DNA of 64,000 nucleotides from an uncultured Chromatiales bacterium (GTDB taxonomy: Bacteria > Pseudomonadota > Gammaproteobacteria > SZUA-140). Positions within the stretch are counted from its first letter, which is position 1; the number at the start of each line of letters is the position of its first letter. The translations under genes were made by a program, and so were the position numbers. Under the pieces are notes generated by a model. That model was given only the letters and a program-made list of their open reading frames with translations, ran no database searches and was not told the origin of the DNA. Shown piece by piece: positions 6,478 through 51,520 of this stretch. The stretch is from assembly GCA_964437335.1 (NCBI GenBank), contig CAYTGL010000011.1, positions 6,990-70,989 on the forward strand. Direction: 5' to 3'.

Positions 6478-6487
6478 GATCTAGCTC

Positions 6488-9400: not shown

Positions 9401-10033
9401 GTACAACCAGCCGATGATCTCAACGTCCTGCCAGCCCTCCTCGGGAATCTCGTTGATCAGATTGCGAATGAGTGAATCGGAGTGCAGCAAGTGATCGGGC
9501 AGGAGCAATTCCGTCTCATCGTCGATTGACTCGAACAAAAACGGCATCGCCTTTTGCAGAGCGTTGCACTGCGCCAACAGCAGCATCCGGTAGAGTTCTT
9601 CCTCTTTGGTGCCATCGAGCTTGAGTTCGACCACCTTCTTCTTGTCAAGGTCCGGCAGATCGACATGCTCGGCATGACCCACGATCTCGGGCAGGTAGTG
9701 CCCCTCGGAATGGCTCAACACCCGATAGCCATGCTCCAAGTAACCATGCAATTCCAAAAAGCGGATAGCGACCAGCCGGTTGAACCACGTATAGGCGACC
9801 GCTTCCATCGTTTGCCCGAAACCATCCCGCTTGATGCGAGCTTCGAGCTTCTTTCGCTTTTCGCCCACAGCTTTCGTGTGTGGCTTCCCAGCGATGATCG
9901 CCACATCGCCTTCGACCGTCATCGGCTCGATCTTCTTGGCGGTCAGTCCATACTGCGCAGCACGGCTCGTCACCGCCTCGATAAAATCACGGCGAGCCTG
10001 GGGAGCGTAGGATTTGAGCTTGTTGCGGTTCAT
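6488..10033 (-). CDS. pglX: BREX adenine-specific DNA methyltransferase PglX
   Basis: 1181 aa; NPPY catalytic motif (VVSNPPYMGGKYY); AdoMet-binding LDPACGSGHIL; N-terminus MNRNKLKSYAPQARRDFIEAVTSRAAQ typical of PglX. Confidence 0.9.
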   Translation of the reverse strand: MNRNKLKSYAPQARRDFIEAVTSRAAQYGLTAKKIEPMTVEGDVAIIAGKPHTKAVGEKRKKLEARIKRDGFGQTMEAVAYTWFNRLVAIRFLELHGYLEHGYRVLSHSEGHYLPEIVGHAEHVDLPDLDKKKVVELKLDGTKEEELYRMLLLAQCNALQKAMPFLFESIDDETELLLPDHLLHSDSLIRNLINEIPEEGWQDVEIIGWLYQFYISEKKDQVIGKVVKSEDIPAATQLFTPNWIVKYLVQNSLGRQWVATYPDSPLSTKPENEGDQRYWMEYYIEPAEQTPEVQAKLAEITPDGLNPEELTLLDPACGSGHILVEAYDLLKAIYQERGYRAKDIPRLILEKNLYGLEIDDRAAQLAAFALMMKARADDRSIFERGVQPHVLSIQESKGLDAKEITEAINAPLPDGSTGDISQADVSQLIELFAHGKTFGSLIRVPKLLSDHLATTLVRVRSVTMEGGMFESATALSFWPMLKQTVLLARQYKAVVSNPPYMGGKYYSKQLKQFVTAVYTSAKADLYGCFISRNTSFAAANGIVGMITIPNWMFLSSFQDMRQSLVNHQSFETFVHNGRGVFGSDFGTCAFTFRNMVMPELRGSYLKLFEKQGSVASNDELQRRFQAANPYQTSGHEFRKIPGSPLAYWISDRTRNCFAEMPSLGESATLRQGLATGDNDRFIRYWFEVACSKLGFGHHSRTSAWQSDAKWFPYNKGGAFRRWYGNNEFVLSFDAASYEVLKTVGNQCPSESYYFKPGITWSLISIAAPSFRAFGEGFVIGHKGCGIYCSNANDMLGLIGILNSTVTTSLLQIVSPTVGFEVGQIRTLPVPPLSSVDSDLVEKIVRQHKNDWNYSEYSWDFSTLDLLPSSGSDEPLVRLSHQRWVTRCHDILRNMKAAEIKNNEAVIRAYGLQDELSPEVSDDHITLYRPNCEEDIKRLISYSTGCMMGRYSLDEPGLIYAHSGNVGFDPSKYHNFPADEDGIIPLTEFHWFPDDAASRFEKFVATAWPKEHLEENLKFVAESLGDKKGESPRDTIRRYLAADFYKHHLSLYKRRPIYWLFSSGKQRGFQALVYLHRYNESTLARMRTEYVIPLLGKMTARIDHLTDEIAAATSSQHKKRLETEKATVVKQLAEVQSFDEKLRHYADHRIKLDLDDGVKANYGKFGDLLAEVKAVSGTKDKE

Positions 10034-10452
10034 CCGTTCTCGATTTCTTTCTCGTCATGTTGTACGGGAAACACACCTCGACCACTGTCAGATCGTTCGA
10101 TGGCTCCGGCCAACACAATCGGCGATAATCTTTGAAGAAGTTCAAGTAGGTCAGGCCAATCGAACACTCGCACCACGCAGCTTTGATACATCGTCACAAT
10201 CGTTACAATCCATGCTGGAGTCTCCTTGAGGTGACGACTAGCGGATGAGCCACGAACATACTCCCAGAGAGAGAAACAAAAGCTGTTCGTGCCGCCGTAT
10301 TGCTTAGTCTCCATATAGCCAAAATCTGGAAGGTATGAACTCCATTCACCTCTGAATTCATCTTCACCAAAGTAGACCGAGGAAACCGATATAAAATGGC
10401 CATTCTTGAAGATGTAGTGGTCTTGAGACAAGGCATGCACTCCTAAAGACAA
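10030..10452 (-). CDS. Hypothetical protein (140 aa) embedded between brxC and pglX
   Basis: Stop overlaps the pglX start by 4 bp (10030-10033); the segment is visibly AT-richer than the flanking BREX genes; no recognisable motif. Confidence 0.5.
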   Translation of the reverse strand: MSLGVHALSQDHYIFKNGHFISVSSVYFGEDEFRGEWSSYLPDFGYMETKQYGGTNSFCFSLWEYVRGSSASRHLKETPAWIVTIVTMYQSCVVRVFDWPDLLELLQRLSPIVLAGAIERSDSGRGVFPVQHDEKEIENG

Positions 10453-10472
10453 CGGTGATTCGATTTAGGCTC

Positions 10473-13400
10473 CTACCGAATTTGAACCCGTTCACCCCTA
10501 GCGACAGCTTCTTCCAACTCTCTTCGCAAGGCATCCAGGAAGCCTTCAACGTCTTCCTGAGTTTCCAGGTACGTTGTCTTAACCATGGACGATGGCCTTA
10601 TTTCTTTGCGTGGCTTGACTACCACAACTGGCTCATCGCTCTTCTTCGTCTGCTCGTGCTTCTTCTTGAGAAACTCGTCGATCTTCGCCAATGCCCCATC
10701 GAGTGCCCGCTCCGCTTCCTGCACAGCCTGGGCAATGTGGGCCACGCTTTCTTGCTTCTCAACCGACTTTCGCAGTGACTCCAACGGCCCTAAGCAGCTT
10801 GAGCGGAGACTCTCTTCACTACCGAACTTCTCGACCTCCTGCGTAAGCTGTGACTGCAACTCATTGATGCGGGCCAGGGCCTCGACTCGTCGTTGGCTGA
10901 CAATGGCCGAATTGGTCCCCTCGACCGTCGTGATTAGTGCTTCGGCCTCATGGACGAGGTTGTAGGGGCTGGGGGCAGAAAGGATTTCTTGCATTCTCCC
11001 TAACGATTTGCGGGCCTTTTCGTCCCGTTCCAATTCCAACCTATTCAGGCCGAAGCGGTCGTGGGCCTTGCGTAGCTTTTCCCAGGTCGGCTTTTGATAC
11101 CGGTAGAAGTTGTCGATGTCGTGGAACTCTTCCGCCAAGTCAAGTAGTTCGGCTTTGTTCTCGATGAATCGAGCTATAAACTTACCCGGCTCGTCGGCAG
11201 CCAAGAGTGCCTTGATGACTAACAGGCCGTCCGTGATCTCGGTTTGGCCTGGGTAGTTGCCCGTGTCGGCCAGAGTCTTGTATTGCAACAGCGACGACTG
11301 CCAAGCCTGGCACTTCCCCTTAAGGAACTCGAATAGCCCGTCTTCGCTGTCTGGTCCCATTTCGGAGAAAACGTCTTTGCCCAGGTTGCGACATTGTTGC
11401 AGCACCTTGGGATCGGTCATTTTGCGACGGACGACGGTGATGCTTCGCTGCTTGCGGGGAGCAGTGATGTTCTCGAACACCTTGTCCATAGCGATGGAAG
11501 CACCGTTGGTCACTAATTGGATTTCCCCCAACACAAGCAACCTGGCGACAAGGATCAGCACTTCATCGTTTGACCAGCCATACGGTCGCTTTTCATAGCG
11601 GTCGAGCATGTCGAACAATACGACGGGGTGATTGGCCCGATCTGAGAGGCCAATGAACTCACGCACTTCCTCCAGCGCCCGGTCGTTGACGCCCGACATG
11701 GCTGCCTTTTGAATGTCGTTGGCTCGCAGAATCGCTTGCAGTTCTCGCTTTGGCTCATCACTGAACTTGGTGACGTAGGCCATCTTGGAGAAGCTGTTGT
11801 CGATTAGATACTCCAGCGACTCGTCCAAAGCCGTGAGCGGTGCCGATGATTTGATGTCCACTCGTTGGCCGGCAGCGAAGTATGTGGCGTCGGCCATCAG
11901 ATTACCGAGCAGTTGTCGCAGCCGCTCCCGGCGTTCCCGATTATCATCGGCCATGGCTCGGTGGATGCGTTTGGTCGTCTCCGGCAGTGTATCGTCCGAT
12001 TTGGCTCGCAGGAACTTCTCAGTTTGGAGGTACTGCCGTAGTTCACGGGCCAGGTTGGGATCGTCGTTGATCTTTATGATGATTTGCCCGCCATCCTGGC
12101 CACTTTCCCGTTGGAACCGAGCGTCTTCGAACAACTCAGGGTCGGCTTCCCCCAATGGCGTGAAGACCTGAACGGTTAGGTCTTTGTCCACTCGGCTGCC
12201 GTAGGGAAAAGCATCGCAAACTCGATTGAACGAAAAGTCCATTTTGTTCGCTTGGTAGCGATGTTTGCGTGTGCCCTTGAGAACATCATCGAAGACAATT
12301 TCTCCCAGTACCTTGGCTTCTTCGCTGCTGGAGAGATCGACCGACTTGATCTCCCGGTTAATGTCCCGTTCTTCATTGGTGAGGAAGAAGAAGTTATCGC
12401 CGCTACGGTTGATCAGCGTTTCTTTTTCCAGCCGCAGCAGCGACTCCTCGATTCGCTTCTTGAGCGCCAATCGGTCGGCGTCAATCTCATCGATGCAGAG
12501 GGTGGTCAGATTATCGATGTTTCCTCGAATTTCATCCACGTAGCGAATGAGGAACAATACCCGCAGAACGTCGATGTCGAAAGGCTTGAGGCTGGCGTTC
12601 TCCTGAGCCTGGTCGATGGTTCGTTTGACGGCAGTGTCGAGGAAAGATTCGATGGACGGATAGAAGCGGTACAGTGGCACCAGCACACCAACTTCGGCAT
12701 CGGCAACGGCTTTACCTGCCGATTGAAAGGCGTCGAGGATCGACCGCTCACCCCGAGATAGGTGTAGACCTGTTGCCCCCGCTTTGCGAATCGCCTCAAA
12801 AATGCGCTGCACTAATTGGAACTGGTAAGGGGCAAACGGATAGTTACGGCAAAAGTCGTCGCTATCCTTGTACTTATTGAAGGTCATCCCTACGTTGTGG
12901 AACGAAAGCTGGTTGCGAAGGATGTCTCCCTTCTCCCGAAAGATGTCTTCCAGCTTGCCTTGCACGGCGTCCCACTTCGCTAACAGCCGCTCCTGAATGA
13001 CTTCGTCCACGTTGGCGCTGGAGAGCGATAAGCGGGTCTTGAATCGGCCTTGAATCTTGGAAAAGTCGTGCGACTTTGTGCTGCGCAAATCTCCCAGCAC
13101 GGCGTCGATATCTTCCTGAGAGGTAACCACCACCCACGCTCGGCCATTACACATGGTTCCCAGGTCTTCGGTGATCGTTTGCAAATTGAGCATCAGATGG
13201 GTATCGCCACCGATAAACTGGCCGACTTCATCGACGAGGAAGATAATGCGATGTTCCGGCCCTTGGCGGTCGAGGTATTCCTTCACCCATTTGCAGAAGT
13301 TCTCGACTGTGAGGGAGAAGTTGTCTTCGGCTTTGTCGATCCACTTTGCACAAGATTCCTTGGACTGCCCAAGTGTAGCGGCCAGTGCCTCGACCACTTC

Positions 13401-14036
13401 GTCCCGGTTAAACTCATAGGCGTCCCGTTCAGCGAGCCAGTTATTGCCCGTGGCCTTTTCAAACGCTTTGTGAAATGTGGGGAGCAGCCCTTTTTCGTCG
13501 AGGTATCGCTCCATGTGGGCGATGTGAGGATGATCGGGGCTGTAGCCCTGCATTTCGTTCAGGACTTTCAGGAAGACGGCCAATATGGCATCTCGTCCGG
13601 CCCGAGTATCCGCCTTGCTGTCGATATTGAACAGGATGACATCGGTATGGGAGCCAACGGCCCGCTTGATGTCGCCGTAGAGCATGGCGTCCTTGACCTT
13701 GCTCTCGAAGAAATCGACGGCTGGCTTGGACTCACCATTGTGCTGATGCGCCTCGTTAGCAAGCAGGTAGGACAAGATCTTGATGAAGTGCGATTTGCCC
13801 GAGCCAAAGAAGCCCGATATCCAAACGCCGATCCGCCCCGACAGATCTGTGTCCTTAGGGTGGTCAATCGCCTCCACATAGGAGGAGAAGAACTTGCGGA
13901 AGTGCTGGTCGAGTTCCTTGGTAACTACGAACTCATCTAATTCTTGCCAGACGGTGTTTTCATCTAGCTGGTCCGCTTTCACGACGCCGTTGATTGGACG
14001 GTCAATCGGCTTCCTAAATAGCTCGTTGATCTGCAT
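10473..14036 (-). CDS. brxC: BREX ATPase BrxC (PglY-like)
   Basis: P-loop GFFGSGKSHFIKILSYLL. The conserved BrxC N-terminus MQINELFRKPIDRPINGVVKADQ begins at the internal Met at ~14036; the ORF-track start at 14213 would overlap brxB by 165 bp, so the internal start is preferred (position +/-1 nt). Confidence 0.88.
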   Translation of the reverse strand: MQINELFRKPIDRPINGVVKADQLDENTVWQELDEFVVTKELDQHFRKFFSSYVEAIDHPKDTDLSGRIGVWISGFFGSGKSHFIKILSYLLANEAHQHNGESKPAVDFFESKVKDAMLYGDIKRAVGSHTDVILFNIDSKADTRAGRDAILAVFLKVLNEMQGYSPDHPHIAHMERYLDEKGLLPTFHKAFEKATGNNWLAERDAYEFNRDEVVEALAATLGQSKESCAKWIDKAEDNFSLTVENFCKWVKEYLDRQGPEHRIIFLVDEVGQFIGGDTHLMLNLQTITEDLGTMCNGRAWVVVTSQEDIDAVLGDLRSTKSHDFSKIQGRFKTRLSLSSANVDEVIQERLLAKWDAVQGKLEDIFREKGDILRNQLSFHNVGMTFNKYKDSDDFCRNYPFAPYQFQLVQRIFEAIRKAGATGLHLSRGERSILDAFQSAGKAVADAEVGVLVPLYRFYPSIESFLDTAVKRTIDQAQENASLKPFDIDVLRVLFLIRYVDEIRGNIDNLTTLCIDEIDADRLALKKRIEESLLRLEKETLINRSGDNFFFLTNEERDINREIKSVDLSSSEEAKVLGEIVFDDVLKGTRKHRYQANKMDFSFNRVCDAFPYGSRVDKDLTVQVFTPLGEADPELFEDARFQRESGQDGGQIIIKINDDPNLARELRQYLQTEKFLRAKSDDTLPETTKRIHRAMADDNRERRERLRQLLGNLMADATYFAAGQRVDIKSSAPLTALDESLEYLIDNSFSKMAYVTKFSDEPKRELQAILRANDIQKAAMSGVNDRALEEVREFIGLSDRANHPVVLFDMLDRYEKRPYGWSNDEVLILVARLLVLGEIQLVTNGASIAMDKVFENITAPRKQRSITVVRRKMTDPKVLQQCRNLGKDVFSEMGPDSEDGLFEFLKGKCQAWQSSLLQYKTLADTGNYPGQTEITDGLLVIKALLAADEPGKFIARFIENKAELLDLAEEFHDIDNFYRYQKPTWEKLRKAHDRFGLNRLELERDEKARKSLGRMQEILSAPSPYNLVHEAEALITTVEGTNSAIVSQRRVEALARINELQSQLTQEVEKFGSEESLRSSCLGPLESLRKSVEKQESVAHIAQAVQEAERALDGALAKIDEFLKKKHEQTKKSDEPVVVVKPRKEIRPSSMVKTTYLETQEDVEGFLDALRRELEEAVARGERVQIR

Positions 14037-14047
14037 CGCCCCTGCTC

Positions 14048-14623
14048 CTATGGAATTAGCCGAAAGGCACGGTAGTAGTTGTCGCTTCTGATTTTTCCGA
14101 ATAGCCTCAGTACAGTGCCGTCGTAGTTGCCGGGGTAAAACGTCACCAGTGGCGTATCCCCCATGATCGAATGGAGGTTGTTTAGTAGAGAGTGCGAACG
14201 AAGGATCGGCCACACGCTGCCGATGCCTGAGAGCAACACGAGGTCTTGCTCTTTCGGTTGGACTTTCACCTCAAACAGCGGCGCTAGTTTCTGCGGGTGA
14301 AGGATCTTCTCCAATTGCCGCAGGACGAAATCGTCGCCTTTGGTCTTCTGGACTTCCAGCGTTTTGTCCAGCAATTTCCGTTCACGCAAATGTTCGATCA
14401 CAAAGTCGAACAGATTGACATGCGTGATATTCATGCCCGACCTGTGCTTGGGGGCGTGCTCCATCAGGAAGGCAATGTGCTTGCGAACTCGCAGTTCCTC
14501 TTCCGGTGGATAGTCGAAAATGAAGAAGGCGATCTCGTTGCCCAGGCCACGACCGCTGAGGAAGTCATCCGAAGTGATCCGGGGCAAAATTTGATTCAGG
14601 CGTTCTTCAAAGTTGGTCGTCAT
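14048..14623 (-). CDS. brxB: BREX protein BrxB (DUF1788)
   Basis: 191 aa; N-terminus MTTNFEERLNQILPRITSDDFLSGRGLGNEIAFFIFDYPPEEE is typical DUF1788/BrxB; 4-bp overlap with brxA. Confidence 0.85.
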   Translation of the reverse strand: MTTNFEERLNQILPRITSDDFLSGRGLGNEIAFFIFDYPPEEELRVRKHIAFLMEHAPKHRSGMNITHVNLFDFVIEHLRERKLLDKTLEVQKTKGDDFVLRQLEKILHPQKLAPLFEVKVQPKEQDLVLLSGIGSVWPILRSHSLLNNLHSIMGDTPLVTFYPGNYDGTVLRLFGKIRSDNYYRAFRLIP

Positions 14624-15210
14624 GTTCCCACCTGAATGCAGCGGAGGACGTATTCTTCGTGTTGCTTATCCAGGTAGCGAAGCACGGGTTTGGCGATGTG
14701 GACCCGCTGAAGTTTACGGGTCTTGGTGCTGTCGATGTAGCCGACCTCTGCCAGGACGGTGTAAACCGACGAACGCAACCGCATGATCGTTGACTCCGCC
14801 CACTGCGGCATGTCGGGATCACGGCCCCGGCAGTCCTCGATGAAATCGTTCCAGACGTTGAGCGAAAGCGATTCTTTGAACGTGCGGTACTGGTCCCGCA
14901 CCACCAGGTCGAGGAAGTCGCCCAGGAGATTGCTGGCCTTTACTGCTGCGGCCAGGCAGGCGTGTGTCGCCTCGGTGCTTGAGCCGTCCCGAACCAGTCT
15001 CCAAAGCGGGGCTTCGACGGAGGAGAGGCGACCACGGATGAGAACCGAAAGCCGCTTGGCGGTTTTCGGGCTGCGGGCCTGGAGGGCGTTCTTCTCGTAT
15101 ATTGCCGCCCGCCATTCCCGGCTGCTGACCTCCCGCAAAAGGAGATCGGCGACTACCCTACTTTCGGGTAGTTTCAACGCTCCTGCGGTTATGTCGGCGC
15201 TGTAACGCAT
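14620..15210 (-). CDS. brxA: BREX protein BrxA (DUF1819)
   Basis: 196 aa; first gene of the operon; MRYSADITAGALKLPESRVVADLLL is the BrxA-type N-terminus. Confidence 0.85.
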   Translation of the reverse strand: MRYSADITAGALKLPESRVVADLLLREVSSREWRAAIYEKNALQARSPKTAKRLSVLIRGRLSSVEAPLWRLVRDGSSTEATHACLAAAVKASNLLGDFLDLVVRDQYRTFKESLSLNVWNDFIEDCRGRDPDMPQWAESTIMRLRSSVYTVLAEVGYIDSTKTRKLQRVHIAKPVLRYLDKQHEEYVLRCIQVGT

Positions 15211-15479
15211 TCTGGCCCCGCTTAATCAGATCGGGAGCCGAAGGCAGCTTCGCCTTCGGAGTCTCCCATCAACGCTTGCAGATTGTAACGGACGACGATT
15301 CGACTGTAAAGTATTTACATAACATCTTTTGTGTTCTACAATCCGGCTTGTTTTTGGCGGTGGCGCTTCCTGGCTGTTCTGGATCACCCTTTTTCGATGA
15401 GGGGCTGAATTGGTTTCCAGGCCCACCAGACGGGTGGTAAGCGGAATCGCCACCACTTCCGTGGTGAGAGGGTGACGAG

Positions 15480-19426: not shown

Positions 19427-20578
19427 TTGCCCATGCCCCAATCCATCCCCACTGGCCTAACTCAGGAACACGTCCTCCGCACCCTTGCGGACCTGGATGC
19501 CGGCATCGATCATCCATTTGGCAAGCCGACCGGCTACGAACTGGTCCACAACGACAACCGGTATGCCCCCAAGGCGGTCATTGGCCTGTCTTGCCGCTAC
19601 TCCATCGGTCGCATCCTTCAACCCGAAGAGTTCAGCGGCGGCGAGGCCCCAGGGCAAGCAAACTTCGTCCTGCGTAAACTTGGATTCACTGTGGTGAAAA
19701 AGGGCGAAGAAGAGATTGAGCCGCAGCCTGGCACGGAATGGACGGCAAACGAAGTCCAACTCATCGTGGCCGATTATTTTGCGATGCTGGAAGCCGAACT
19801 TCTCGGCCAACCGTTCAAGAAGTCGGATCATCGAAAGGCACTGATGCCCCAACTCTCTGGCCGATCCAATGGGTCCATCGAGTTCAAGCATCAAAACGTG
19901 AGCGGCGTCCTGGTCGAACTGGGATTGCCTTACATTGAAGGCTACAAACCACGCAGCAATTACCAGGGTATTCTCGCTACCGAGGTTGAAAGCTTCCTGG
20001 ACCAGCATCCTGGCTTCTTGGAAAAGCTGGCCACCGCACCCACCTTGAACCCGGCTTTGAGCGTGCAGATTTCAGCACCCGATTTCGATCAGGTCATCGA
20101 ACCGCCGCCCCAGAAGACAATTGGCCCCAAGCTAACGACCAAACCTTGGTTGACCCGCAAAGCTCGCAAGATCGATTTTGCTGAGCTTGATGCGGTGAAC
20201 CGCCGCCTGGGGAATCTCGGTGAACAATTCGTGTTCGATTTGGAACGGTATCGGTTGAAAGAAGCAGGCCGAGACGATTTGGCTCAGAAGGTGACGTGGG
20301 CATCAAGGGACATTGGCGACGGCCTGGGCTTCGACATTCTTTCGTTCGACGACGCCGACGATTCCGAGAGAATGCTGGAAGTCAAAACGACTGGCCTGGG
20401 AAAGTTCTTTCCCTTCTACGTCACCGGCAACGAGGTCCGCTGTTCAGAGGATATTCCGCAGCAATACCAGCTTTTTCGAGTGTTTGATTTTGGCCGGGAA
20501 CCTCGGCTTTACATCTTGCATGGCTCACTACGGGAGTTATGCCAGCTTGACCCGGTGTTGTATCGGGCGGTGATTTAG
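19427..20578 (+). CDS. DUF3883-domain protein (restriction-associated C-terminal domain)
   Basis: C-terminal GDGLGFDILSFDD...MLEVKTTG...FYVTGNEVRCSE...YQLFRVFDF fits the DUF3883 signature; N-terminal half unassigned. Confidence 0.55.
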   Translation: MPMPQSIPTGLTQEHVLRTLADLDAGIDHPFGKPTGYELVHNDNRYAPKAVIGLSCRYSIGRILQPEEFSGGEAPGQANFVLRKLGFTVVKKGEEEIEPQPGTEWTANEVQLIVADYFAMLEAELLGQPFKKSDHRKALMPQLSGRSNGSIEFKHQNVSGVLVELGLPYIEGYKPRSNYQGILATEVESFLDQHPGFLEKLATAPTLNPALSVQISAPDFDQVIEPPPQKTIGPKLTTKPWLTRKARKIDFAELDAVNRRLGNLGEQFVFDLERYRLKEAGRDDLAQKVTWASRDIGDGLGFDILSFDDADDSERMLEVKTTGLGKFFPFYVTGNEVRCSEDIPQQYQLFRVFDFGREPRLYILHGSLRELCQLDPVLYRAVI

Positions 20579-21809: not shown

Positions 21810-21876
21810 TTACTGAATCACCAATGCCGATAACGGAGTCTCGTTTACTCCGTTATCGGCATTGGTGATTCAGTAA
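21810..21876. repeat. Perfect 30-bp-stem inverted repeat with 7-nt loop
   Basis: ttactgaatcaccaatgccgataacggagt / ctcgttt / actccgttatcggcattggtgattcagtaa; lies in the 1.5-kb non-coding gap upstream of the HNH gene's 3' end. Confidence 0.65.
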
Positions 21877-22072: not shown

Positions 22073-22990
22073 TCAGGATTTCTTTCGCCGAAGAAACGAT
22101 TCCCAGCGTAGCTTCAGCGCCCGACTGCTTGGCTTCTTTGACGAGCATTTGAGAGCTACGCCGTCGAATTCGGCATATCCAGCTTCTCTTGCAGCGGGAT
22201 GAATTTGAACGACAAGTTTCTTCGGTTCAATGCCGATCAAATCCAGGTCGAATAGGGTATGCAGGTCAGCCCGCAGCAGCAATCCATTCTCTGGATGGTT
22301 GTCTCTCTCGCCTCTGTAAGGCTTAATGTGAGCGGCCTCCAAAACGTCCAATAAACGGCACCCAGAGATCATGCAGTTGTCGCCGTATCTTTCCCGTAGC
22401 GACTGCCTGAACACTTGTTGACCTCGGCGGGCTTTGATTTGGCGAAAAGCGATTTCTCTCCAGTCGCCCGGTTCTGGGATGTATTCTGGTCCCCCAATAC
22501 TTTCGCTCGCCTCAACATCGACTAGGTATTCTGAGCCATCGATCTTCTTGAGATGACTGATCCACGATGATTCAAGCGCCCTAGCGGCCTCATCGGCCAA
22601 CATCACTCCCGAAGCTGGCATTCTCCAATAGACTTCCGCAAGTGGGCCATCTTTGATGTCCTCTACCGACAACGGAGTCTGCTCATCCGGATTCAAGATT
22701 CGGTCGAGCACCACGTCTGCACCCAAAGAGGTCTCTCTCCGCAGATTGCGTTCGGGATCAAAATGAGGTTTCTCGGAGACGTGCGAGATACTCGTTCCCG
22801 CAGCAATAATTCCCCTAGGCGACACTCCTTGCTTGAGAAGAAAAACCCGGTCGCCAGGCACCATTTTCTTTGAGTTGCCTGTGCTCCAACGAGTCTTGAA
22901 CGGCTTGCCTTTCGCCGTTTGCTTGCAAACTTTCTCCAAATCCTCCCAGTGCCATCTCGCCGGGTTCCAGGTCAATACAAAGGTTGCCAT
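22073..22990 (-). CDS. HNH endonuclease family protein with N-terminal reader-like domain
   Basis: C-terminal CMISGCRLLDVLEAAHIKPY...NGLLLRADLHTLFD is the HNH (HNH_2-type) motif; N-terminus MATFVLTWNPARW resembles PUA/EVE-like modified-base reader domains (weak). Confidence 0.65.
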   Translation of the reverse strand: MATFVLTWNPARWHWEDLEKVCKQTAKGKPFKTRWSTGNSKKMVPGDRVFLLKQGVSPRGIIAAGTSISHVSEKPHFDPERNLRRETSLGADVVLDRILNPDEQTPLSVEDIKDGPLAEVYWRMPASGVMLADEAARALESSWISHLKKIDGSEYLVDVEASESIGGPEYIPEPGDWREIAFRQIKARRGQQVFRQSLRERYGDNCMISGCRLLDVLEAAHIKPYRGERDNHPENGLLLRADLHTLFDLDLIGIEPKKLVVQIHPAAREAGYAEFDGVALKCSSKKPSSRALKLRWESFLRRKKS

Positions 22991-23419: not shown

Positions 23420-24403
23420 CTACTCCCCCATTTCCTCCACCCACTTCGTCGTCACCCGCACGTATTCGCATTTTCCACCACCCAACCGACCCACACTTTC
23501 CGTCAAGTCGTGTGCGGCACCCAATACGATCAAGCCAAAGGTGCCGTTGTCAAGAACCGCCTTCACCTGGGCGTCGTGACGAGCTTCAATCGTAGCTGGG
23601 TCGAGCTTGACTTCGCCCGTGGCAGCAAGCGGCTGTGCGTTCTGGTATGCCACTGTTTCTTCCAGCGGCAATACGTCGTCCAATTCGCCGGAAACAAGCA
23701 GTCGGCCCGCCGCTCCAATCTCCAGCATGCGGACCTTGTGTTCATCCAGCATCACTTGCAACTTGTTTTGAATTTCCAACGCCTCGTCGCCTAGCTTTCG
23801 AGCCTCCTCAAGTTGCTGGCGGATTACTGGCATTTGTTCACGCTCCATCGAACGCAAAACGGCAATTTTCGCCTGATAGTCGCTCAAAGCATCCGGCGAA
23901 AGCCCCTCACTGTAAACTGCCTTTAAGCCATGGTGCTTGATGAGGCAGCGGAGCAGCGCAATTTGTTCGATTTGAACCAAATCGACTTCCAGCAAAAACT
24001 CTTGGTACAGCCGGTCGATCTCGTTCGGTGACATCTTTTGATCGTTTGCAGTTTCCACGTCTTGGGCGAATAAAGCCTTGGGGAGGAAATGCCAATCTCG
24101 GAGATGAATGATGCGGGAGGTTGGCTTGTCAGTCGTTTTGCTGGATTCGACCTTGGCCACACCTGGCAGTTGCCGCAGGAGGTCAGCAATGGATGAATCC
24201 AGGTCGTCGATCTGAATGCTGCTCTTGGGAACGTAATTGGCAACGGCTTCGGCGGACTCCTCTTCCTGCATAGCGACCTGATGCTGAAGAAAAGGAAGAT
24301 TGGGCACGGAAGGATATCGGCAGGTCGGGAACACAGCCGGAAGAACTAGAGCGGCGGCCAGCAAGCACAGGACCGCCACAATGATTGCCCCTCGAACGCC
24401 CAT
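23420..24403 (-). CDS. Membrane-anchored hypothetical protein (327 aa)
   Basis: N-terminal signal/TM segment (AIIVAVLCLLAAALVLPAVF); starts 1 bp after the stop of the NERD-helicase gene, so probably co-transcribed. Confidence 0.55.
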   Translation of the reverse strand: MGVRGAIIVAVLCLLAAALVLPAVFPTCRYPSVPNLPFLQHQVAMQEEESAEAVANYVPKSSIQIDDLDSSIADLLRQLPGVAKVESSKTTDKPTSRIIHLRDWHFLPKALFAQDVETANDQKMSPNEIDRLYQEFLLEVDLVQIEQIALLRCLIKHHGLKAVYSEGLSPDALSDYQAKIAVLRSMEREQMPVIRQQLEEARKLGDEALEIQNKLQVMLDEHKVRMLEIGAAGRLLVSGELDDVLPLEETVAYQNAQPLAATGEVKLDPATIEARHDAQVKAVLDNGTFGLIVLGAAHDLTESVGRLGGGKCEYVRVTTKWVEEMGE

Positions 24404-26416
24404 TTATTGTCCCCTTTGCCTGGCCAATTCTGCTTGGCGATCTAAGATCTTCACCCATTCGGCAACCAGTCCCTCACCTCGGTAAGCGAAAACCTCCAGG
24501 TATTCGATTGCTCTCGTACAACCAACGTAGAAGTTAATCCTGCCAGCCAGGTCTCGATCAAACTCGTTTGCCGAAGCGAGCAGGACGCAATATGCATCAT
24601 AACCTTTCGCCGAGGCCGTGGTGGAAAGGGTGAGCGTGGATCGCTGGCCCAGCAGCTTGTCCTGCTCCCTGAAAGCAACATGCAGTCCGTCGATGCCCTT
24701 GATCCCGGCGGCGACAACAGCGGCGGCAATTCGTTCGACCCGGTTCTTTCTCATCGAAAGTACCAAGATATCCTGAGGACGAACTCGCTGCTCTTCAATC
24801 AGCCAACGCAACCGAGTTACGATGTCCTGAACTTCTGCTGCCGGCGATGGTGCCATCGAAAGCTTGGGTGCCTCGCCACCACGAACTGCGAAGTTGACCT
24901 TCCAAAATCCTTCTGCGGGCAAAATCAACTGCTTATCTTCCAGGCTGGCAATATCACCAAATTCCTTCGTGGGAACATCGGCCTTGTCGTCAGCCGCCGT
25001 CCCATACAGCACGTTAAAGGCGGCTTCCACAATGGGACGAGTGTTGCGAAAGCATTGGGACATCACGTGTGCCCGGCCACCCCTGACGTTAAGGCCAACA
25101 GACAACCAGTTGGGCCGCTTTCGTCCGAGGAAGTTCTGGGCATCGTCGTAGAAGACGTAAATGTTTGGATCGTGTCCTTCAGCAACCTGGCAAAGTTCCT
25201 TGAGCAGCCGGAAATCTTCTTCCAGGAAATCCTGCCCTTCGTCCACGAAGATCGCATCGTAAGCCACGGCGTCAAAGATTTCGGGATGCTTCTGCTTTAC
25301 GTCCAGCAGTTCCTTCAAGTATTGCGCCGCCCGATCTTCATCTGTCCCAGCTTCAATTCGTTGGTATCGCCACAGCCCCTTCTGGGACAAGTGCCACATC
25401 AGCCGATTGTAGGAGAAGACTTCGACTCCCTCGGCAGGAAGTGGCTGTCCAGTTCGCTGTTGATAAGCCAGCCCGATTTTCTTTTCCAAAAAGGGCACCA
25501 GCGACCGGTTGTTGCAGACCGCCAGTATTCGTGGTGCCGGGCTTGAGTCCTTAAACAGATCGTTTTCAACCTGCAACCGCTGTAGCCGTCGAGCGAGATT
25601 GTTCGCCAAGACGATTGTCTTACCGCTGCCGGCCACGCCACGGATCAATCGTGGCCCTTCGTGCCAATTCTGCGAGGACAGCTTCTGTTGTTCATCCGAG
25701 AGCGTTTTGTACGTTTCGGCGGCCTCATCAAACAGTTCCCCCAGCGTCCCCTCAGGAACCCGACGAACTTCCCTTTCTTCGGGGCCGTGAAACAGTACCG
25801 AGGAATCGCCAAAGGCCGCCCAAACCGCTGCTATTTGATCAGCAGGCCACGATTTCATTCCCAAATTGGCCAGTTGTATTTGGCCAATGCTACGAAGGCG
25901 GTCGCCCAATCCTGCGAGATCTTCGCTGAAGATGAACTCGTTCGGGCAATAAGCTTGGTCGCCCCACCTGGCTAGCCAGGTCGCCTTGCTGATCCTGGGA
26001 AAGGCCACCCAATACTTGAAGGACAAGAACAAATCGCCGTCAAATGCCTGCTCGGTGGCATTCTTGACGTCGAACATGGCACTGCGGACCTGAGCCACGG
26101 GGTTTCTCGTGCGGTTGCCGCTTTCGTACCGGAACCGAAGCTGGCCCCCTGGCTCGATTGCTTCAATTTGATCCAGATCGTGGCCCTTCACTTCGATGAC
26201 GTGCAGGCCAGCCACGGTATCGACCAGAACCAGGTCGGGAGGCCGTTTGGTGGTGCGAGCCAAGCTTGGTTCACAAAGCACGGTGGCGTCCGGGTGGTTG
26301 AATCCCTGGACTAAACTGGCCATCGTCTGTCGATGGGCGTCGTTGCCAGCGTCCTCCCAGCCGAAGACACGACATTTCGCAGAATTCACCAGTCGTTCAA
26401 GCTCGTTTTGTCGCAT
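24404..26416 (-). CDS. NERD-domain nuclease fused to UvrD/SF1-like helicase
   Basis: N-terminal PDLVLVDTVAGLHVIEVKGHDL (NERD, PD-(D/E)xK-like); Walker A IRGVAGSGKTIV; Walker B IFVDEGQDF; SF1 helicase C-terminal region. Confidence 0.75.
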   Translation of the reverse strand: MRQNELERLVNSAKCRVFGWEDAGNDAHRQTMASLVQGFNHPDATVLCEPSLARTTKRPPDLVLVDTVAGLHVIEVKGHDLDQIEAIEPGGQLRFRYESGNRTRNPVAQVRSAMFDVKNATEQAFDGDLFLSFKYWVAFPRISKATWLARWGDQAYCPNEFIFSEDLAGLGDRLRSIGQIQLANLGMKSWPADQIAAVWAAFGDSSVLFHGPEEREVRRVPEGTLGELFDEAAETYKTLSDEQQKLSSQNWHEGPRLIRGVAGSGKTIVLANNLARRLQRLQVENDLFKDSSPAPRILAVCNNRSLVPFLEKKIGLAYQQRTGQPLPAEGVEVFSYNRLMWHLSQKGLWRYQRIEAGTDEDRAAQYLKELLDVKQKHPEIFDAVAYDAIFVDEGQDFLEEDFRLLKELCQVAEGHDPNIYVFYDDAQNFLGRKRPNWLSVGLNVRGGRAHVMSQCFRNTRPIVEAAFNVLYGTAADDKADVPTKEFGDIASLEDKQLILPAEGFWKVNFAVRGGEAPKLSMAPSPAAEVQDIVTRLRWLIEEQRVRPQDILVLSMRKNRVERIAAAVVAAGIKGIDGLHVAFREQDKLLGQRSTLTLSTTASAKGYDAYCVLLASANEFDRDLAGRINFYVGCTRAIEYLEVFAYRGEGLVAEWVKILDRQAELARQRGQ

Positions 26417-26768
26417 CGGCCTTGCATGTCCCCGTCGCTTTCGAATGTTCCACCCAATTGGACATTATGCCTGCTGGGGGACGATGCACAAAGAGATGGT
26501 CGGGGATGGAATGGTTGCGGCAGCGGCAGCTTTGGCTATTCTCAGGATCGCCGATACTTCTGTCCTCTACTGTTGGATATCTGCTCCGGTGACTCCTTTC
26601 GGCTAGAAGCCATCGTGGAATCGACTGGTCAACGAGACAAGGCAGACGAACAACCCTTTGTAGTTTGGCGACGACGAGAGTTCGGTGAGGGGCGGCGGAG
26701 TTGCTACTTGGTCGAGGTTGGCAGCAAACGAGTGAGCTATGAGAAACTAAACGCTTTGAGGCAACGTA

Positions 26769-28562
26769 ATGACAGCTAGTCCAATCACACTGTCGTTTCC
26801 GACACTCTGCTCTCTCTTGTCGAACAGCGCCTTTGAGAAGGACGTTGAATTCGCATTAGAACTGGCTTCATCGAACACCTTGGAGCAAGACTTGCGGATT
26901 TTGCTAGAAGAAAAGGCTTTTGACTTGAACGATTTGATGTGGGGTGTTCTTTGTACGGCACTACTACAACATAACGATCCGGGGACAGTGGCACTTGAAT
27001 CGAATCTTACGGCAATTGTTGCTGCCGTTGGAATCGACGAGGCTCGTAAAGCCTATCGTAACAAACTCCTGGTCAATTGCGAGGACACGCTAGAGGACGC
27101 TCGTTATGAAATCGCTGTGACAGCACAACTTTGTCGAATACTTGATGCTGGATCAATACGCCTTGAATATCCCATCCCCGGCTCGAAGAACAATTCGGAC
27201 GTGTTCGGAACTCTTGATGGCGAGTCAATCCGAATTGAAGTGACGGTACTTCATGAGTGCCTTCCGCCGGCTGCTGATCTCGATTTGGATGACGTTGTTC
27301 GTGCTGCCACAATGGACTCCGGATTCATTGTCAATTTGAATCGAGTGCTTGCAAATCAAGACCATGCGGAAAGAGTGCGCTCAATAATTGAGCTTCTGCA
27401 CGAATCACACATGAAAGCAGAAGGCGAGTATCAGGAAATTGACCGTTTGCCTTTCGAGTGGCGAGGCGGAGCATATCACTGTGAGCGACGAGAGTCTCCC
27501 ATAAAGACCATTCAATTCGATCTGCCTGTTGAAACTCGACAGATCATTCATCCTGTTTTTACCAGAAGCACCACACCACCGCACATCAAAAAAGATTTTG
27601 AGCAACCCGCTGGAGTTACGTCACTATTTGACGTCCCACGGAACCCCGATACGCACAATGATAATCCTCTAAGTACAAAAGTTCGGCAAATGCTCGATGC
27701 TAAGCGTCGGCAATGTGAAGACGGCGTTGTCAATATAGTTGCCTTGTGTAACCCATTGCCATTCCACGACAGAAAAGTCGCAAGTGCGGTGTATGGCGTG
27801 CCAATGGTTATCGTTCCCTACGATGAAGACGAAACCGGGATGCGACATTTTAAGGAGACACTTGTCCGAAGAAATCACAAGGCCCCGTTCTCGCCCGACA
27901 ACGTGATGAGCGATGACGAACGAGAAGAGTTTCTTGAGCCGTTTAGAAAGCTATCAGGGGTGTGGCTGTTTCGCTTGGGAATTTATGCCAGAAGTCAGCT
28001 ATTGCCTAATTTCAACGCCGCTCGGACGATCCCGGACAAGCTCGTTGATTTCTTGTCCGTTAAAGAAATCGCTACACCTGCTCCTCTCGAACCTAGCGAA
28101 TGCACTGTCGAATTGGCGGGCCTCAGCAATGCGAACGACGGAGTGCCTGCGATGGCTGATGACTATGTCACTGTATGCCGCAGCTACGAACAGGCGAGAA
28201 ATGCATTGGCAGAACTTAGGAGAACTGGCGTGCCTTTTTCGGAGCTTGAGTCAAGGCTCGACCAGCTCAAACGCACTTCCGATACACAGGGACAAGCATT
28301 CTGCGAGCCAATCGAAGAGGAATGGGCCATTAGTTTTGTGCTGGAGTGTGGCGGCTTTCCCCAAGCTGATGCATGCCTTAGCTCCTGGGCAATGGAGAAT
28401 GGCATTGTAAGTCCAGTGGAAGATCGCCGGCGGTGGATCGAAGAGAACGCATACTTTCGCTGGTTAAATGAGTGCTATCACCACGGCAATGATGTGCGAC
28501 ACTGGTACGAGGCCGAAATTGCATACGGCGAAGTCCACCCCGAGGGCAAGGGGGCGGAGTAG
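26769..28562 (+). CDS. Hypothetical protein (597 aa)
   Basis: Long uninterrupted ORF of lower GC; no recognisable motifs. Confidence 0.55.
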   Translation: MTASPITLSFPTLCSLLSNSAFEKDVEFALELASSNTLEQDLRILLEEKAFDLNDLMWGVLCTALLQHNDPGTVALESNLTAIVAAVGIDEARKAYRNKLLVNCEDTLEDARYEIAVTAQLCRILDAGSIRLEYPIPGSKNNSDVFGTLDGESIRIEVTVLHECLPPAADLDLDDVVRAATMDSGFIVNLNRVLANQDHAERVRSIIELLHESHMKAEGEYQEIDRLPFEWRGGAYHCERRESPIKTIQFDLPVETRQIIHPVFTRSTTPPHIKKDFEQPAGVTSLFDVPRNPDTHNDNPLSTKVRQMLDAKRRQCEDGVVNIVALCNPLPFHDRKVASAVYGVPMVIVPYDEDETGMRHFKETLVRRNHKAPFSPDNVMSDDEREEFLEPFRKLSGVWLFRLGIYARSQLLPNFNAARTIPDKLVDFLSVKEIATPAPLEPSECTVELAGLSNANDGVPAMADDYVTVCRSYEQARNALAELRRTGVPFSELESRLDQLKRTSDTQGQAFCEPIEEEWAISFVLECGGFPQADACLSSWAMENGIVSPVEDRRRWIEENAYFRWLNECYHHGNDVRHWYEAEIAYGEVHPEGKGAE

Positions 28563-37463: not shown

Positions 37464-38420
37464 ATGTCGGAACCGAACGATTTTCGCCCCAATGCCCTGA
37501 GCCACCTGGTTGGACAGGAACACGTTCGCCAGGTTGTCAGCACCGCACTCGATTACAGCTTCCAAGAGCAAGTTTCCTTCCCGCACGCTTTGGCACTCGG
37601 TCCACCAGGCGTCGGCAAGACGGCTATGGCCAGGGTGATCTCCCAAGAACTTGCGTCGGGATTCCACGAATGCCTGGCTTCAGCGATCACATCTCCAGCT
37701 GAATTTTTCGCTGTGCTGATGCGTGCCAAGGATCTGGACGTCGTGTTTTTTGACGAACTTCACGTTTTGGACCCGGCCTACCAACACGCACTTCTGATTG
37801 CGACGGACGAAGGAAAGATCTTCTTGCCGAATAGCAATGGCGGTGCCCCTCAAGCAATCAACTTGGCAAAATTTTCCCTCATAGCGGCCACGACAGACGA
37901 ACACAAAGTTATTCGCCCTCTGGTCGATCGGTTCAAGCTCATCTTGCGTTTCTCTTATTACACCAAAGTGGAGTTGGCCGAGATTGTTCGCACCCGAGCC
38001 AAGGGACTTGGCTGGCAGATTAAGAGTGATGTCGCTGATCCGATCGCTGAACGAAGCAAAGGCGTTCCACGCCTGGCAATTCGTCTGTTGCAAAGCTGCT
38101 GGCGTGTATGTCGTGCAGGTGGCGACCACACCATCACCCGCAAACACTTGGAACGAGCGTGCGCTCTGGAACAGATCGACGCCAATGGGCTCGACGCAAC
38201 TGAGCAGCAGTACCTGGTGTTGCTTGCAAACGGCCCGCTGAGATTGAACGTGCTGTCCAGCATCCTCGGTCTTCCCGCCCGAACGGTTTCCCACGTCACC
38301 GAGTCGTTCCTGATCCGCAGCGGCCTGGTTACCAAAGATAAGAACGGCATGCGGATGCTTACTGCCAAAGGAATGGAGCACCTGGGAGCGTCACATTCCG
38401 GTAAGGATGGTGGCAAATGA
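37464..38420 (+). CDS. RuvB-like AAA+ ATPase (divergent Holliday-junction helicase homolog)
   Basis: FRPNALSHLVGQEHVRQVV (RuvB N-terminal pattern), Walker A GPPGVGKTAMAR, Walker B VVFFDELH, sensor and winged-helix-like C-terminus; divergent from canonical RuvB; 4-bp overlap with the next gene. Confidence 0.65.
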   Translation: MSEPNDFRPNALSHLVGQEHVRQVVSTALDYSFQEQVSFPHALALGPPGVGKTAMARVISQELASGFHECLASAITSPAEFFAVLMRAKDLDVVFFDELHVLDPAYQHALLIATDEGKIFLPNSNGGAPQAINLAKFSLIAATTDEHKVIRPLVDRFKLILRFSYYTKVELAEIVRTRAKGLGWQIKSDVADPIAERSKGVPRLAIRLLQSCWRVCRAGGDHTITRKHLERACALEQIDANGLDATEQQYLVLLANGPLRLNVLSSILGLPARTVSHVTESFLIRSGLVTKDKNGMRMLTAKGMEHLGASHSGKDGGK

Positions 38421-38938: not shown

Positions 38939-39877
38939 ATGGTGTCACATTCACGTCCCGAAGGCCGCAAGAATTCGGGCGATAATGTTTTCGGCGGTGT
39001 GCCAGTTGGTCAGGAAGAGGCATCTCTCCTCAGCCAGTTTCTGTCGGCGCAGGACTTGGCCGAAAACAGTCGCCGTGCAGTCATCAATGATGTGCGGAAG
39101 TTTACCAGATGGTTTGCCGAGGCAAACCATGAGCCGTTCACAGTCGGCCGTGTCACCACTCGTGACATTGCCGACTTTCGGGATCACCTGCGCCGCAAGC
39201 AGGATCAAGCCGTCGCCACAGTCAACCGTGCCTTGATGTCGATTCGCCGCTACTTTGGCTGGTTGGTTGAGCAGGGTCACCTTCATGCCAATCCCGCAAA
39301 GGCAGTCAAAGAGCTGCGAACCGTGGAACTTTCGCCCAAGGGGATGGATCGTGCGGCGGTGCGACGACTGCTCCGTGAGATCGAGCTTCGGCAGGACGTA
39401 CGGGCCAACGCCATTTTCCACCTGCTGCTCTACACTGGCTGCCGCTGTGGCGATCTCGTGAACCTTGACATGGCCGACCTCCTTGTGAGCGACCGCAGCG
39501 GTTCAGTGGTCTACAGATTCGGTAAAGGCAACAAGCAGCGATCGGTGCCGTTGCCCGTTCCTGCCCGTCGAGCATTAGCGACCTACCTGGAAACTCGGCC
39601 GCCTTCGGAAAGTCAGCGGATCTTCATCGGCGAACGAGGTCCACTCGGCGAGCGGGGAATTCGAGCGTTGTGCGACAAATACTCAGCTCTGATCGGCGTG
39701 AAAATCCACCCACACCTACTGCGGCACACGATGGCCCACGGCTATTTGGATGCCAACCCTGGTGACCTCGTCGGGCTTGCCCAACTACTTGGCCACAGCA
39801 ACTTGAACACGACCGCACGATACACAAAGAAGAGCCAGGAAGAGTTGCGGGCGGCAGCGGAGAAGGTTGAGTATTGA
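38939..39877 (+). CDS. Tyrosine site-specific recombinase (XerC/D-type integrase)
   Basis: Core-binding N-terminal domain plus catalytic box [38 protein letters not shown] (R..H..R..Y). Confidence 0.85.
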
Positions 39878-41571: not shown

Positions 41572-42552
41572 ATGCCAGCTGAAATTTCCTTCGTCAATGG
41601 AAAAGCTGAAGCCGCCTTCGCCTTGAAGCCAGCGTGGTGGGACGCTGCAAACCGTTGCACGCTCGACCACGTGCCCGACTCGGCAGGGATGATTCGGGCC
41701 GCACATTTGAACTGGGAGGTTCAACCGCAACCGATCTACAACGCCGACGGCCGAATCATCGAAGGGTATAGCACGACGGTTCGCTTGGACACGGGTTTGC
41801 ACCTTGGCGTGATGTCCGATCAATATCGTGTCGTTCAGAACGCCGAGGGTTTCCGTTTTCTCGACAACTTGCTGCGAGATGGCGTCATGCGGTACGAGTC
41901 GGCTGGTGCCTTGCGTGGCGGCCGCACCGTGTGGGCCTTAGCTCGAATGCCTTCGGTGGACACGATCGCTGAAGGCGACGACGTGTGCCGCTACTGCTTA
42001 TGGCTGAATTCGCACGACGGCACGGGCGCAATCTACGCCATCCCCACCAGCGTGCGAGTGGTTTGTGCAAATACAGCCGCCTTGGCAATCCGTGGCCAGC
42101 GTGGGATTAAACACATGGGCGACATGGACGCCAAGCTGAAGCAGGCGCATGAACTGCTCAGCCAAGCCGACCGCCAATTCACCGACTTTAGGGATAATGC
42201 CCAACTGCTTGCCAACCGCCGATATAGCCCAGTTGATGCCAAGCAGTACGTTGCAACCTTGTTGCCAGAACCAGAAGAGGCAGGCCGTTCGCTTTCGATC
42301 CGTGAACGCAAGGTCGAAGAAATCCGCATCGCACTCCGTAGCGATCGGCAAAATATCGCATCGATCCAAGGCACCTGGTGGAGCCTTTACAACGCCGTCT
42401 CTGAGGGAATCGACCACGGCCGTTTCTACGGGTTCAAAGGCAAAGGCCAACAACGGGCCGAAAACCGTATGACTTCCGTCATGATGGGCCAGGGGGCGGA
42501 ATTCAAACGCCAGGCTTTCGATCTGGCCGTATCGATGGCGCAGGCTTCGTAG
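41572..42552 (+). CDS. DUF932-family protein (phage/plasmid-associated)
   Basis: Conserved WLNSHDGTGA block and overall length ~326 aa typical of DUF932. Confidence 0.65.
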   Translation: MPAEISFVNGKAEAAFALKPAWWDAANRCTLDHVPDSAGMIRAAHLNWEVQPQPIYNADGRIIEGYSTTVRLDTGLHLGVMSDQYRVVQNAEGFRFLDNLLRDGVMRYESAGALRGGRTVWALARMPSVDTIAEGDDVCRYCLWLNSHDGTGAIYAIPTSVRVVCANTAALAIRGQRGIKHMGDMDAKLKQAHELLSQADRQFTDFRDNAQLLANRRYSPVDAKQYVATLLPEPEEAGRSLSIRERKVEEIRIALRSDRQNIASIQGTWWSLYNAVSEGIDHGRFYGFKGKGQQRAENRMTSVMMGQGAEFKRQAFDLAVSMAQAS

Positions 42553-51159: not shown

Positions 51160-51520
51160 TGGAGGCGGCGGGAATCGAACCCGCGTCCCGCGATATTTCA
51201 ATAACAGCCTCTACGCGCGTAGTCGAACTCATTTAAGGTTTCGCCGTTCCACCCCCTGTCGACCGGGTGTTGGATTGGCTAGCCGGGGACGGCTTTTTAG
51301 CCCGGGGCGTTCCCAGCGGTGACCCCAGGCGAGTCGAATTTGACGGCCGGCTTTTGGGTCTCTTCGACGAAGACCCGCAGTCGGGGTTGCCGTTACTAGG
51401 CAGCCAGTGCGAGATTATTCTCGGCAAGTAAAATCGTAGTCAGCTTTTTACGTGGCCAACTGACCAACCACGGCACGCCACTGATACATCAGGCTATCCG
51501 GTCGATACCAGTTCGCCCCC
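51160..51520 (-). ncRNA. ssrA: tmRNA (SsrA), ~361 nt
   Basis: 5' end GGGGGCGAACUGGUAUCGACCGGAU (tmRNA 5' consensus). 3' end GGACGCGGGUUCGAUUCCCGCCGCCUCCA (T-arm plus acceptor). Acceptor stem pairs with G3:U70. Internal tag reading frame GCC GAG AAU AAU CUC GCA CUG GCU GCC UAG UAA gives AENNLALAA**. CCA is not encoded. Confidence 0.85.

Follow-up and report, generated by a model that had tools for sequence, protein, structure and literature searches.

A NERD-nuclease/UvrD-type helicase fusion and the signal-anchored gene abutting it in a Chromatiales defense island: probably independent cargo rather than a two-component system

We analyzed a 64-kb window from an uncultured Chromatiales bacterium (64,000 nucleotides, positions 6,990 to 70,989 of contig CAYTGL010000011.1, GenBank assembly GCA_964437335.1), in which two abutting genes on the reverse strand had been singled out as a possible two-component immune system. 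The upstream gene (24404-26416, read from its open reading frame (ORF) and translation) encodes a 670-residue fusion of a NERD nuclease of the PD-(D/E)xK type with a superfamily 1 (SF1) UvrD-like helicase, of the kind that PADLOC lists as C3a187; we call its product the NERD-helicase. The downstream gene (23420-24403), which we call the partner, encodes a signal-anchored, probably exported protein of 327 residues that has no Pfam match and is predicted to adopt a TIKI/ChaN/EreA/TraB-like fold. The original prediction that the stop of the fusion gene abuts the start of the 327-residue gene was exact: reading the junction (24401-24406, reverse strand) gave caaTAAATGggc, in which the TAA stop of the NERD-helicase (24404-24406) is followed with zero spacer by the ATG of the partner (24401-24403). 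The purine-rich stretch AAGGGGA lies 7-13 nucleotides upstream of this ATG.

A consensus scan of the junction revealed no terminator-like site, and the NERD-helicase and partner are probably co-transcribed in the window. A divergent intergenic region of 352 bp (26417-26768, from the ORF map) lies upstream of the NERD-helicase and is presumed to contain the promoter; no sigma-70-type consensus was found upstream of the gene, a negative that carries little weight. Downstream of the pair is a co-oriented EVE-HNH gene (22073-22990, reverse strand), and about 200 nucleotides beyond it a repeat search identified a perfect inverted repeat of 30 nucleotides with a 7-nucleotide loop (21810-21876, 100% complementary). 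Transcription of the helicase/partner/EVE-HNH string may end strongly at this repeat, which could alternatively be a palindrome bound by a protein. Repeats flanking the gene pair were limited to short matches at chance level, and a comparison of nine loci made visible no conserved DNA around the NERD-helicase gene that would mark a mobile cassette.

The NERD-helicase combines a nuclease domain with an SF1 helicase in one polypeptide, with the PD...ExK triad and both Walker motifs in a single 670-residue ORF. Its N-terminal NERD/PD-(D/E)xK domain, located with Pfam and alignments, covers approximately residues 41-141 (25994-26296; this and the following features of the pair are all on the reverse strand) and includes the invariant residues E49, D61, E75 and K77. 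The Pfam NERD model scores below its threshold over residues 42-121 (16.2 against 22.1, E = 0.016), and some homologues carry a precomputed NERD match and the NCBI name "NERD domain-containing protein". The SF1 helicase core, approximately residues 238-651 (24464-25705), was delimited by motifs, Pfam and structural matches to UvrD, PcrA and Rep; the Pfam UvrD-helicase N-terminal domain matches residues 242-285 with 29.1 bits against a cut-off of 23 (E = 1e-6). Walker A (GVAGSGKT, G260-T267, nucleotides 25616-25639) and Walker B (DEGQD, D392-D396, nucleotides 25229-25243) were placed with an alignment of 103 sequences, and these motifs, like the PD-(D/E)xK residues, vary little or not at all across alignments of 18 and 103 members. 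The AlphaFold (AF2) model has a pLDDT of 89, and its best Foldseek matches in the PDB are SLFN11/14 and PcrA/UvrD/Rep; a profile search of PDB sequences returned PcrA and UvrD/UvrD1 alone, as weak matches. The family comprises more than 521 homologues that are 50-79% identical and come mostly from Planctomycetota.

Among defense-gene profiles, the PADLOC model of C3a187 ("NERD+UvrD", PDLC01087) matches residues 59-659 of the NERD-helicase with E = 1.4e-29, covering model positions 46-558 of 559, and it is matched by all 18 sampled relatives (best 2.8e-37). The model of RTasNERD-Hel, a DRT-associated NERD-helicase, is likewise matched by 18 of 18 relatives (best 4.9e-15), and GajB models by up to 18 of 18. 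In contrast, the Nhi model (PDLC02372) reaches only E = 0.0017 and 15 bits over residues 383-429 alone, about 45 residues around Walker B, and just one of the 18 relatives matches it, weakly (2.6e-4). Pfam, PADLOC, motifs and neighboring genes agree on the proposed NERD-nuclease/SF1-helicase fusion in a defense island, and the proposed assignment to Nhi is not supported. Judged by its sequence, the protein is an active-looking nuclease-helicase fusion with intact motifs, which is Nhi-like in architecture and lies outside the Nhi sequence family.

The partner has the N-terminal membrane anchor that had been predicted for it. A hydrophobic signal-anchor or signal-peptide segment was placed by hydrophobicity at approximately residues 6-26 (24326-24388); the hydrophobic stretch extends over about residues 5-26, its best 17-residue Kyte-Doolittle window averages 3.04, and the AlphaFold model (pLDDT 91) has a helix at residues 4-19. 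In the model this one helix is followed by a globular alpha/beta domain whose strand order fits a parallel-sheet alpha/beta fold. Family alignments divide the protein into a hydrophobic N-terminal segment and a linker, both variable, and a conserved domain, which in the window protein corresponds to residues 80-327 (23423-24166). Eight residues of this domain (H100, D103, H105, E146, E166, R234, R275 and H298) are either fully conserved or kept in at least 90% of 112 sequences, and the family motifs are IIHLRDWH, VQxEQ, GAAGRLL and LGGAHDL. Close homologues number more than 231, and an exhaustive search (E <= 1e-3) puts this large family at no fewer than 1322 clusters at 50% identity.

Profile searches gave the partner no name. 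Pfam, NCBIfam and PADLOC contained no credible match, only a sub-threshold PycTM hit on the transmembrane segment, and a Pfam scan of 112 relatives and 10 distant ones yielded coiled-coil and transmembrane noise together with one TPR fusion. The Pfam models of TraB, of ChaN-type haem-binding proteins and of erythromycin esterase were unmatched at E <= 1 in the same 112 members and 10 distant ones, and a profile search of PDB sequences with the partner came back empty. One JGI name and the weak PycTM hit had raised the option of a PilO-like or Pycsar-type transmembrane effector, and we rejected this assignment because the matches are limited to the hydrophobic and coiled-coil N-terminus.

Foldseek against the PDB gave no significant match (best E = 0.057), and the two best matches were RRSP and BcR135; the top structural neighbor of the partner is ChaN, itself a lipoprotein. 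RRSP has been grouped with PMT, HopBA1, Bcr135 and ChaN in the TIKI superfamily, for which a catalytic set of 2His/2Glu plus Arg is described (PMC6254334). The partner model has the alpha/beta fold with a parallel beta-sheet core that is characteristic of the TIKI/ChaN/EreA/TraB superfamily, and its eight conserved residues sit at strand ends or helix starts, as candidates for the 2His/2Glu (+Arg) set that the superfamily carries at the ends of its core strands. We regard membership of the partner domain in this fold superfamily, which the model suggests, as probable, not certain.

An N-terminal hydrophobic segment is present in 105 of 120 members of the partner family and a lipobox-like motif in 11 of the 120. 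The net charge averages +3.1 on the N-terminal flank of the segment and +0.7 on the C-terminal flank. Under the positive-inside rule, these flank charges point to an N-in/C-out orientation and hence to a predicted export of the globular domain, in line with ChaN and similar lipoproteins. Approximately five residues would then be left in the cytoplasm, with little to take a signal from a DNA-bound helicase, and this predicted topology speaks against the suggested coupling of DNA sensing to the partner as an effector in the membrane.

The conservation of the pair was assessed from the helicase side. Loci were collected from a scan of one genome per species (80 loci), a metagenome scan and individual look-ups and were binned by helicase hidden Markov model (HMM) score, and flanks of up to 10 kb were searched for the partner with tblastn and a partner-family HMM. 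None of the 80 species-level loci has a partner-family ORF in its flanks. The gene is also absent from all 23 loci whose helicases are approximately 50-71% identical, from all eight at approximately 42-44% identity (partial matches included), and from the 17 loci of these two groups that extend at least 2.5 kb on both sides. Outside the closest helicase clade, the count is therefore 0 of 31 family loci (~42-71% identity), and it is 0 of 73 among remoter helicase relatives. The original prediction had proposed to judge the two-component idea by whether the partner is conserved beside NERD-helicases in other genomes. A nearby partner is confined to the closest clade, with helicases at least 72% identical (six loci), and synteny fails for the family as a whole.

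Eight loci of the closest clade carry the partner, and they represent six independent ones, since L087 and L089 duplicate L086 and L088. Three further contigs at this identity are uninformative: L091 and L119 end 130-200 bp past the helicase, and L109 lacks the upstream side. The arrangement of the linked genes varies. In the window, the partner directly abuts the helicase, and in L107, an independent metagenomic contig, the stop and start also abut, as TGA/ATG. A small GIY-YIG gene separates helicase from partner in L090, and a 356-residue gene does so in L085. The order is reversed in L086 and L087, which read GIY-YIG, partner, an 84-residue gene and helicase, and in L088 and L089 a divergent, lipoprotein-type partner precedes the helicase. 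A partner that is found downstream and abutting, downstream past another gene, or upstream does not form the fixed operon that was envisaged for a two-component system.

Little else is shared among helicase neighborhoods. The partner is the only neighbor gene cluster widely common to helicase loci, in the eight loci of the closest clade, and the partner-linked flanks otherwise share just a 53-residue match between the HTH_17 genes of the window and L085. As a side observation, the GIY-YIG gene (about 86 residues; L086 8426-8686 and L090 ~2120-2371) lies directly upstream of the partner in both contigs and is 71% identical between them, forming a second recurrent pairing that is independent of the order relative to the helicase. 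The proteins flanking the pair in the window (26769-28562, forward strand) and in L085 (8137-9012) both end in a DUF2934 motif and are otherwise dissimilar. Beyond the closest clade, the helicase of L121 (68% identity) adjoins type I restriction-modification (R-M), AbiTii and CBASS genes, and the helicase of the marine (TARA) contig L120 (71%) sits among TIR-STAND genes. This L120 segment (1885-15305) is a dense NLR-like island in its own right, in which the helicase is placed between two giant TIR-nSTAND-repeat (WD40/TPR) genes alongside a WD40 protein and a TIR-containing LRR-Roc-COR protein.

The partner also occurs without the helicase. Six partner homologues were picked solely for their long contigs, bringing the partner loci examined to 12 in all, and no helicase of the same family lies near any of the six in the flanks examined. 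Their neighbors include GmrSD_N (in a pAgo-SIR2 island), ASCH, HEPN_LA2681, YAcAr+SMODS and PLD-DEAD genes as well as a NOV_C fragment. In three of these six cases, all in unrelated contigs (L001 7169-15926, L004 6923-9035 and L117 6106-9020), comM (ChlI/Mg_chelatase) is split by an island at approximately the same residue (around 280-311), and a partner-family gene lies at or near the comM/island junction, reading inward; both comM fragments are visible in L001, 7.4 kb apart. This recurrence suggests a comM-targeting element or hotspot in Planctomycetota. A search of the window for comM fragments, made because partner homologues sit at comM-splitting islands, found none.

The two proteins do not diverge together. 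Linked helicases are 72-94% identical to each other, compared with 32-50% for their partners, and helicase and partner identities are uncorrelated (Spearman rho -0.03, 15 pairs). In the partner tree, the linked proteins fall in scattered positions, often nearer to unlinked ones: P0023, which is linked, shares 70% identity with the unlinked P0003 and 57% with the partner in the window. Between L090 and L107, the helicases are 94% identical over the 193-residue C-terminal fragment available in L107, and the partners are 32% identical and differ in N-terminal type. This polyphyly and lack of co-divergence led us to reject vertical co-inheritance of one ancestral helicase-partner operon. Viral contigs yielded no partner relatives and just two remote relatives of the NERD-helicase (24% identity), so neither gene is, on this sampling, typically phage-borne.

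Both genes lie within a putative genomic island (window 1-52000) that would measure at least about 50 kb and be integrated at ssrA. A tmRNA gene (51160-51520, reverse strand) marks a shift in GC, which is ~0.50-0.57 (about 0.54) to its left and 0.61-0.67 to its right, where FHA, Ser-Thr kinase and ECF-sigma genes are found. The gene for a 605-residue HTH_7 protein (49107-50924) adjoins the tmRNA gene, and the island further contains genes for a tyrosine integrase (38939-39877), a DUF932 protein (41572-42552) and a RuvB-like AAA+ protein (37464-38420), together with one or more HTH_17 genes. A type 1 BREX system occupies 692-15210, from brxA to brxL. Its operon is canonical except for two small ORFs of 199 and 178 residues without Pfam match, which overlap by 4 nucleotides (5345-6477, reverse strand) and sit between pglX (6488-10033) and pglZ (2727-5348). 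A NOV_C-domain gene (19427-20578, forward strand) matches the PADLOC candidate PDC-S36 almost over its full length (E = 6.7e-101) and is a further candidate defense gene of the island; PIN_8, metallophosphatase and ARPP-1 genes are also present, and nuclease genes are numerous in this part of the window.

We consider it probable that the NERD-helicase and the partner came as separate cargo of a horizontally acquired defense island and share a hotspot, and that they are not a coupled two-component system. The NERD-helicase would be a stand-alone NERD-nuclease/SF1A-helicase that is loaded onto foreign or aberrant DNA, moves along it at the expense of ATP and cleaves with its N-terminal PD-(D/E)xK domain, in a mode analogous in logic to that of Nhi and other helicase-nucleases. 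The partner, signal-anchored here and a putative lipoprotein in some relatives, would present its TIKI/ChaN/EreA/TraB-fold domain to the periplasm and would probably be a hydrolase, either a protease or an esterase, acting on an envelope or extracellular substrate. Partner-family genes may be residents at the edges of variable-island hotspots in Planctomycetota, often as the first gene at the junction of comM-splitting islands, beside which mobile defense cargo, including this helicase clade, would have landed repeatedly. This model would explain the placement of the helicase clade as well as that of the ASCH, HEPN, GmrSD and SMODS genes beside other partners, and the probable co-transcription and possible translational coupling of the pair in the window would then reflect gene packing rather than a common mechanism.

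Several observations weigh against independence. A partner-family gene lies within about 2 kb of the helicase in all six informative independent loci of the closest clade, which is beyond chance alone; the hotspot that would explain it is itself inferred. Abutment of stop and start in two independent loci, the window and L107, suggests that the NERD-helicase and partner may be translationally coupled. In 9 of the 12 partner loci, the partner follows closely downstream of a gene for a nucleic-acid enzyme in the same orientation, a placement that could mean that it serves as a reusable companion module. Finally, the export of the partner domain was called with simple heuristics instead of a dedicated predictor. 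Within a narrow helicase clade, this proximity, which recurs, is polyphyletic and tolerates changes of position, is real and needs explanation.

A looser functional pairing would offer one, and we regard it as unlikely. Here, the exported TIKI-fold partner would be an envelope defense or exclusion determinant in a modular two-layer cassette with varied cytoplasmic nucleases and no direct signaling between the layers, and it might degrade a phage or conjugation component or a signaling peptide, like PrgY/TraB on enterococcal plasmids. The idea gains from the usual position of the partner directly downstream of a co-oriented gene, be it for the NERD-helicase, a GIY-YIG protein, an ASCH protein or an unannotated 147-residue protein following GmrSD_N, and from its position just upstream of HEPN_LA2681 and YAcAr+SMODS genes in other loci. 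It is also consistent with a link to the helicase clade that is recurrent and polyphyletic, with the size and the conserved catalytic-type residues of the partner family, and with a superfamily that includes secreted or membrane-bound proteases and esterases (PMC6254334). However, the neighboring genes are too diverse for one mechanism, the family has no PADLOC match and was not found on viral contigs, and a partner that did no more than flank an insertion hotspot would produce this pattern too; the reading draws on only 12 loci. Its more specific form, in which the partner family is a new envelope-acting defense or exclusion determinant, an exported hydrolase recruited repeatedly downstream of diverse cytoplasmic nucleic-acid enzymes in Planctomycetota, and the helicase clade depends on having it nearby, appears rather improbable.

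It is also quite improbable that the NERD-helicase has no immune function and is instead a maintenance, replication or repair helicase-nuclease of an integrative element, with the partner as another element gene. The tyrosine integrase, DUF932 and HTH_17 genes of the window would fit such a role, as would the ArdC, SRAP and serine recombinase genes in L086, L088, L119 and L120. However, the helicase has no constant companion among element genes, its immediate neighbors in other genomes are the classical defense systems R-M, CBASS, TIR-STAND and BREX, and its best profile matches are the defense-catalogue models of C3a187, the DRT-associated NERD-helicase and GajB. Least probable of all is the two-gene defense system of the original prediction, in which a cytoplasmic NERD-helicase would sense or process invading DNA and signal to the membrane-anchored partner as an effector (for example, of membrane damage or abortive infection): the abutting codons in the window and L107, the partner beside all six informative loci of the closest clade and the defense-island location favor it, but the partner domain is predicted to be exported with about five cytoplasmic residues and no pore-forming or multi-pass transmembrane architecture, the partner gene occurs in 0 of 31 other loci of the helicase family and is mostly found without the helicase, the order varies with intervening genes (356 residues in L085, GIY-YIG in L090, 84 residues in L086), and helicase and partner do not co-diverge.

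If the two genes are indeed independent cargo, the locus adds an uncharacterized NERD-UvrD nuclease-helicase to the candidate single-gene defense proteins, and abutment of stop and start alone is a poor sign of a two-component system. The more useful by-product is the partner family, which is large, unmatched in Pfam and PADLOC, probably of a TIKI/ChaN-like fold and probably exported. It lives in variable and defense islands of Planctomycetota, often at the edge of comM-inserted islands, and its proximity to one narrow helicase clade offers a concrete lead that can be tested, in a phylum with almost no experimentally studied immune systems.

Compared with known systems, the partner recalls the TIKI/TraB-PrgY-GumN/ChaN/EreA proteins, among which we count EreC and TraB on the strength of their family names. 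Its H100 and H105 after the first core strand, D103, E146, E166, R234/R275 and the GGAHDL motif (H298) resemble the 2His/2Glu plus Arg set, and many superfamily members are secreted, lipoproteins or membrane-anchored; the partner differs from them by long helical insertions (residues 126-158 and 170-228). The NERD-helicase resembles Nhi in uniting a nuclease and an SF1 helicase in one polypeptide and in its defense-island site, and most of its relatives lack a conserved neighbor, as expected of a single-gene system. The helicase of Nhi is closer to the Upf1/DNA2-like branch, whereas the NERD-helicase of the window scores as UvrD/PcrA-like. Nhi-like systems are single-gene, and NERD is listed for "Nhi-like" (PMC10952713).

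GajB of Gabija and the DRT-associated NERD-helicases have a UvrD-like ATPase core in common with the NERD-helicase, and their profile matches are weaker and consistent. However, these matches span just parts of the helicase core, and both kinds of protein act together with a second one, the nuclease GajA or a reverse transcriptase, for which no gene adjoins that of the NERD-helicase in the window. The closest counterpart is C3a187, which was defined from three NERD+UvrD genes beside type III CRISPR-cas cassettes and for which no function has been established (Shah et al. 2018, RNA Biol, PMC6546367). The settings differ in that the neighbors of the window gene are BREX and nuclease genes rather than type III CRISPR-cas; the 64-kb window contains no tandem-repeat array, and its annotated ORFs, which were not subjected to a dedicated cas profile scan, showed no cas-like domain. 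The likeness extends to the same NERD-nuclease and UvrD-type helicase architecture, a near full-length profile match and a location beside other immune systems, and by these sequence features the NERD-helicase is an additional member of the catalogued, uncharacterized C3a187-type NERD+UvrD kind.

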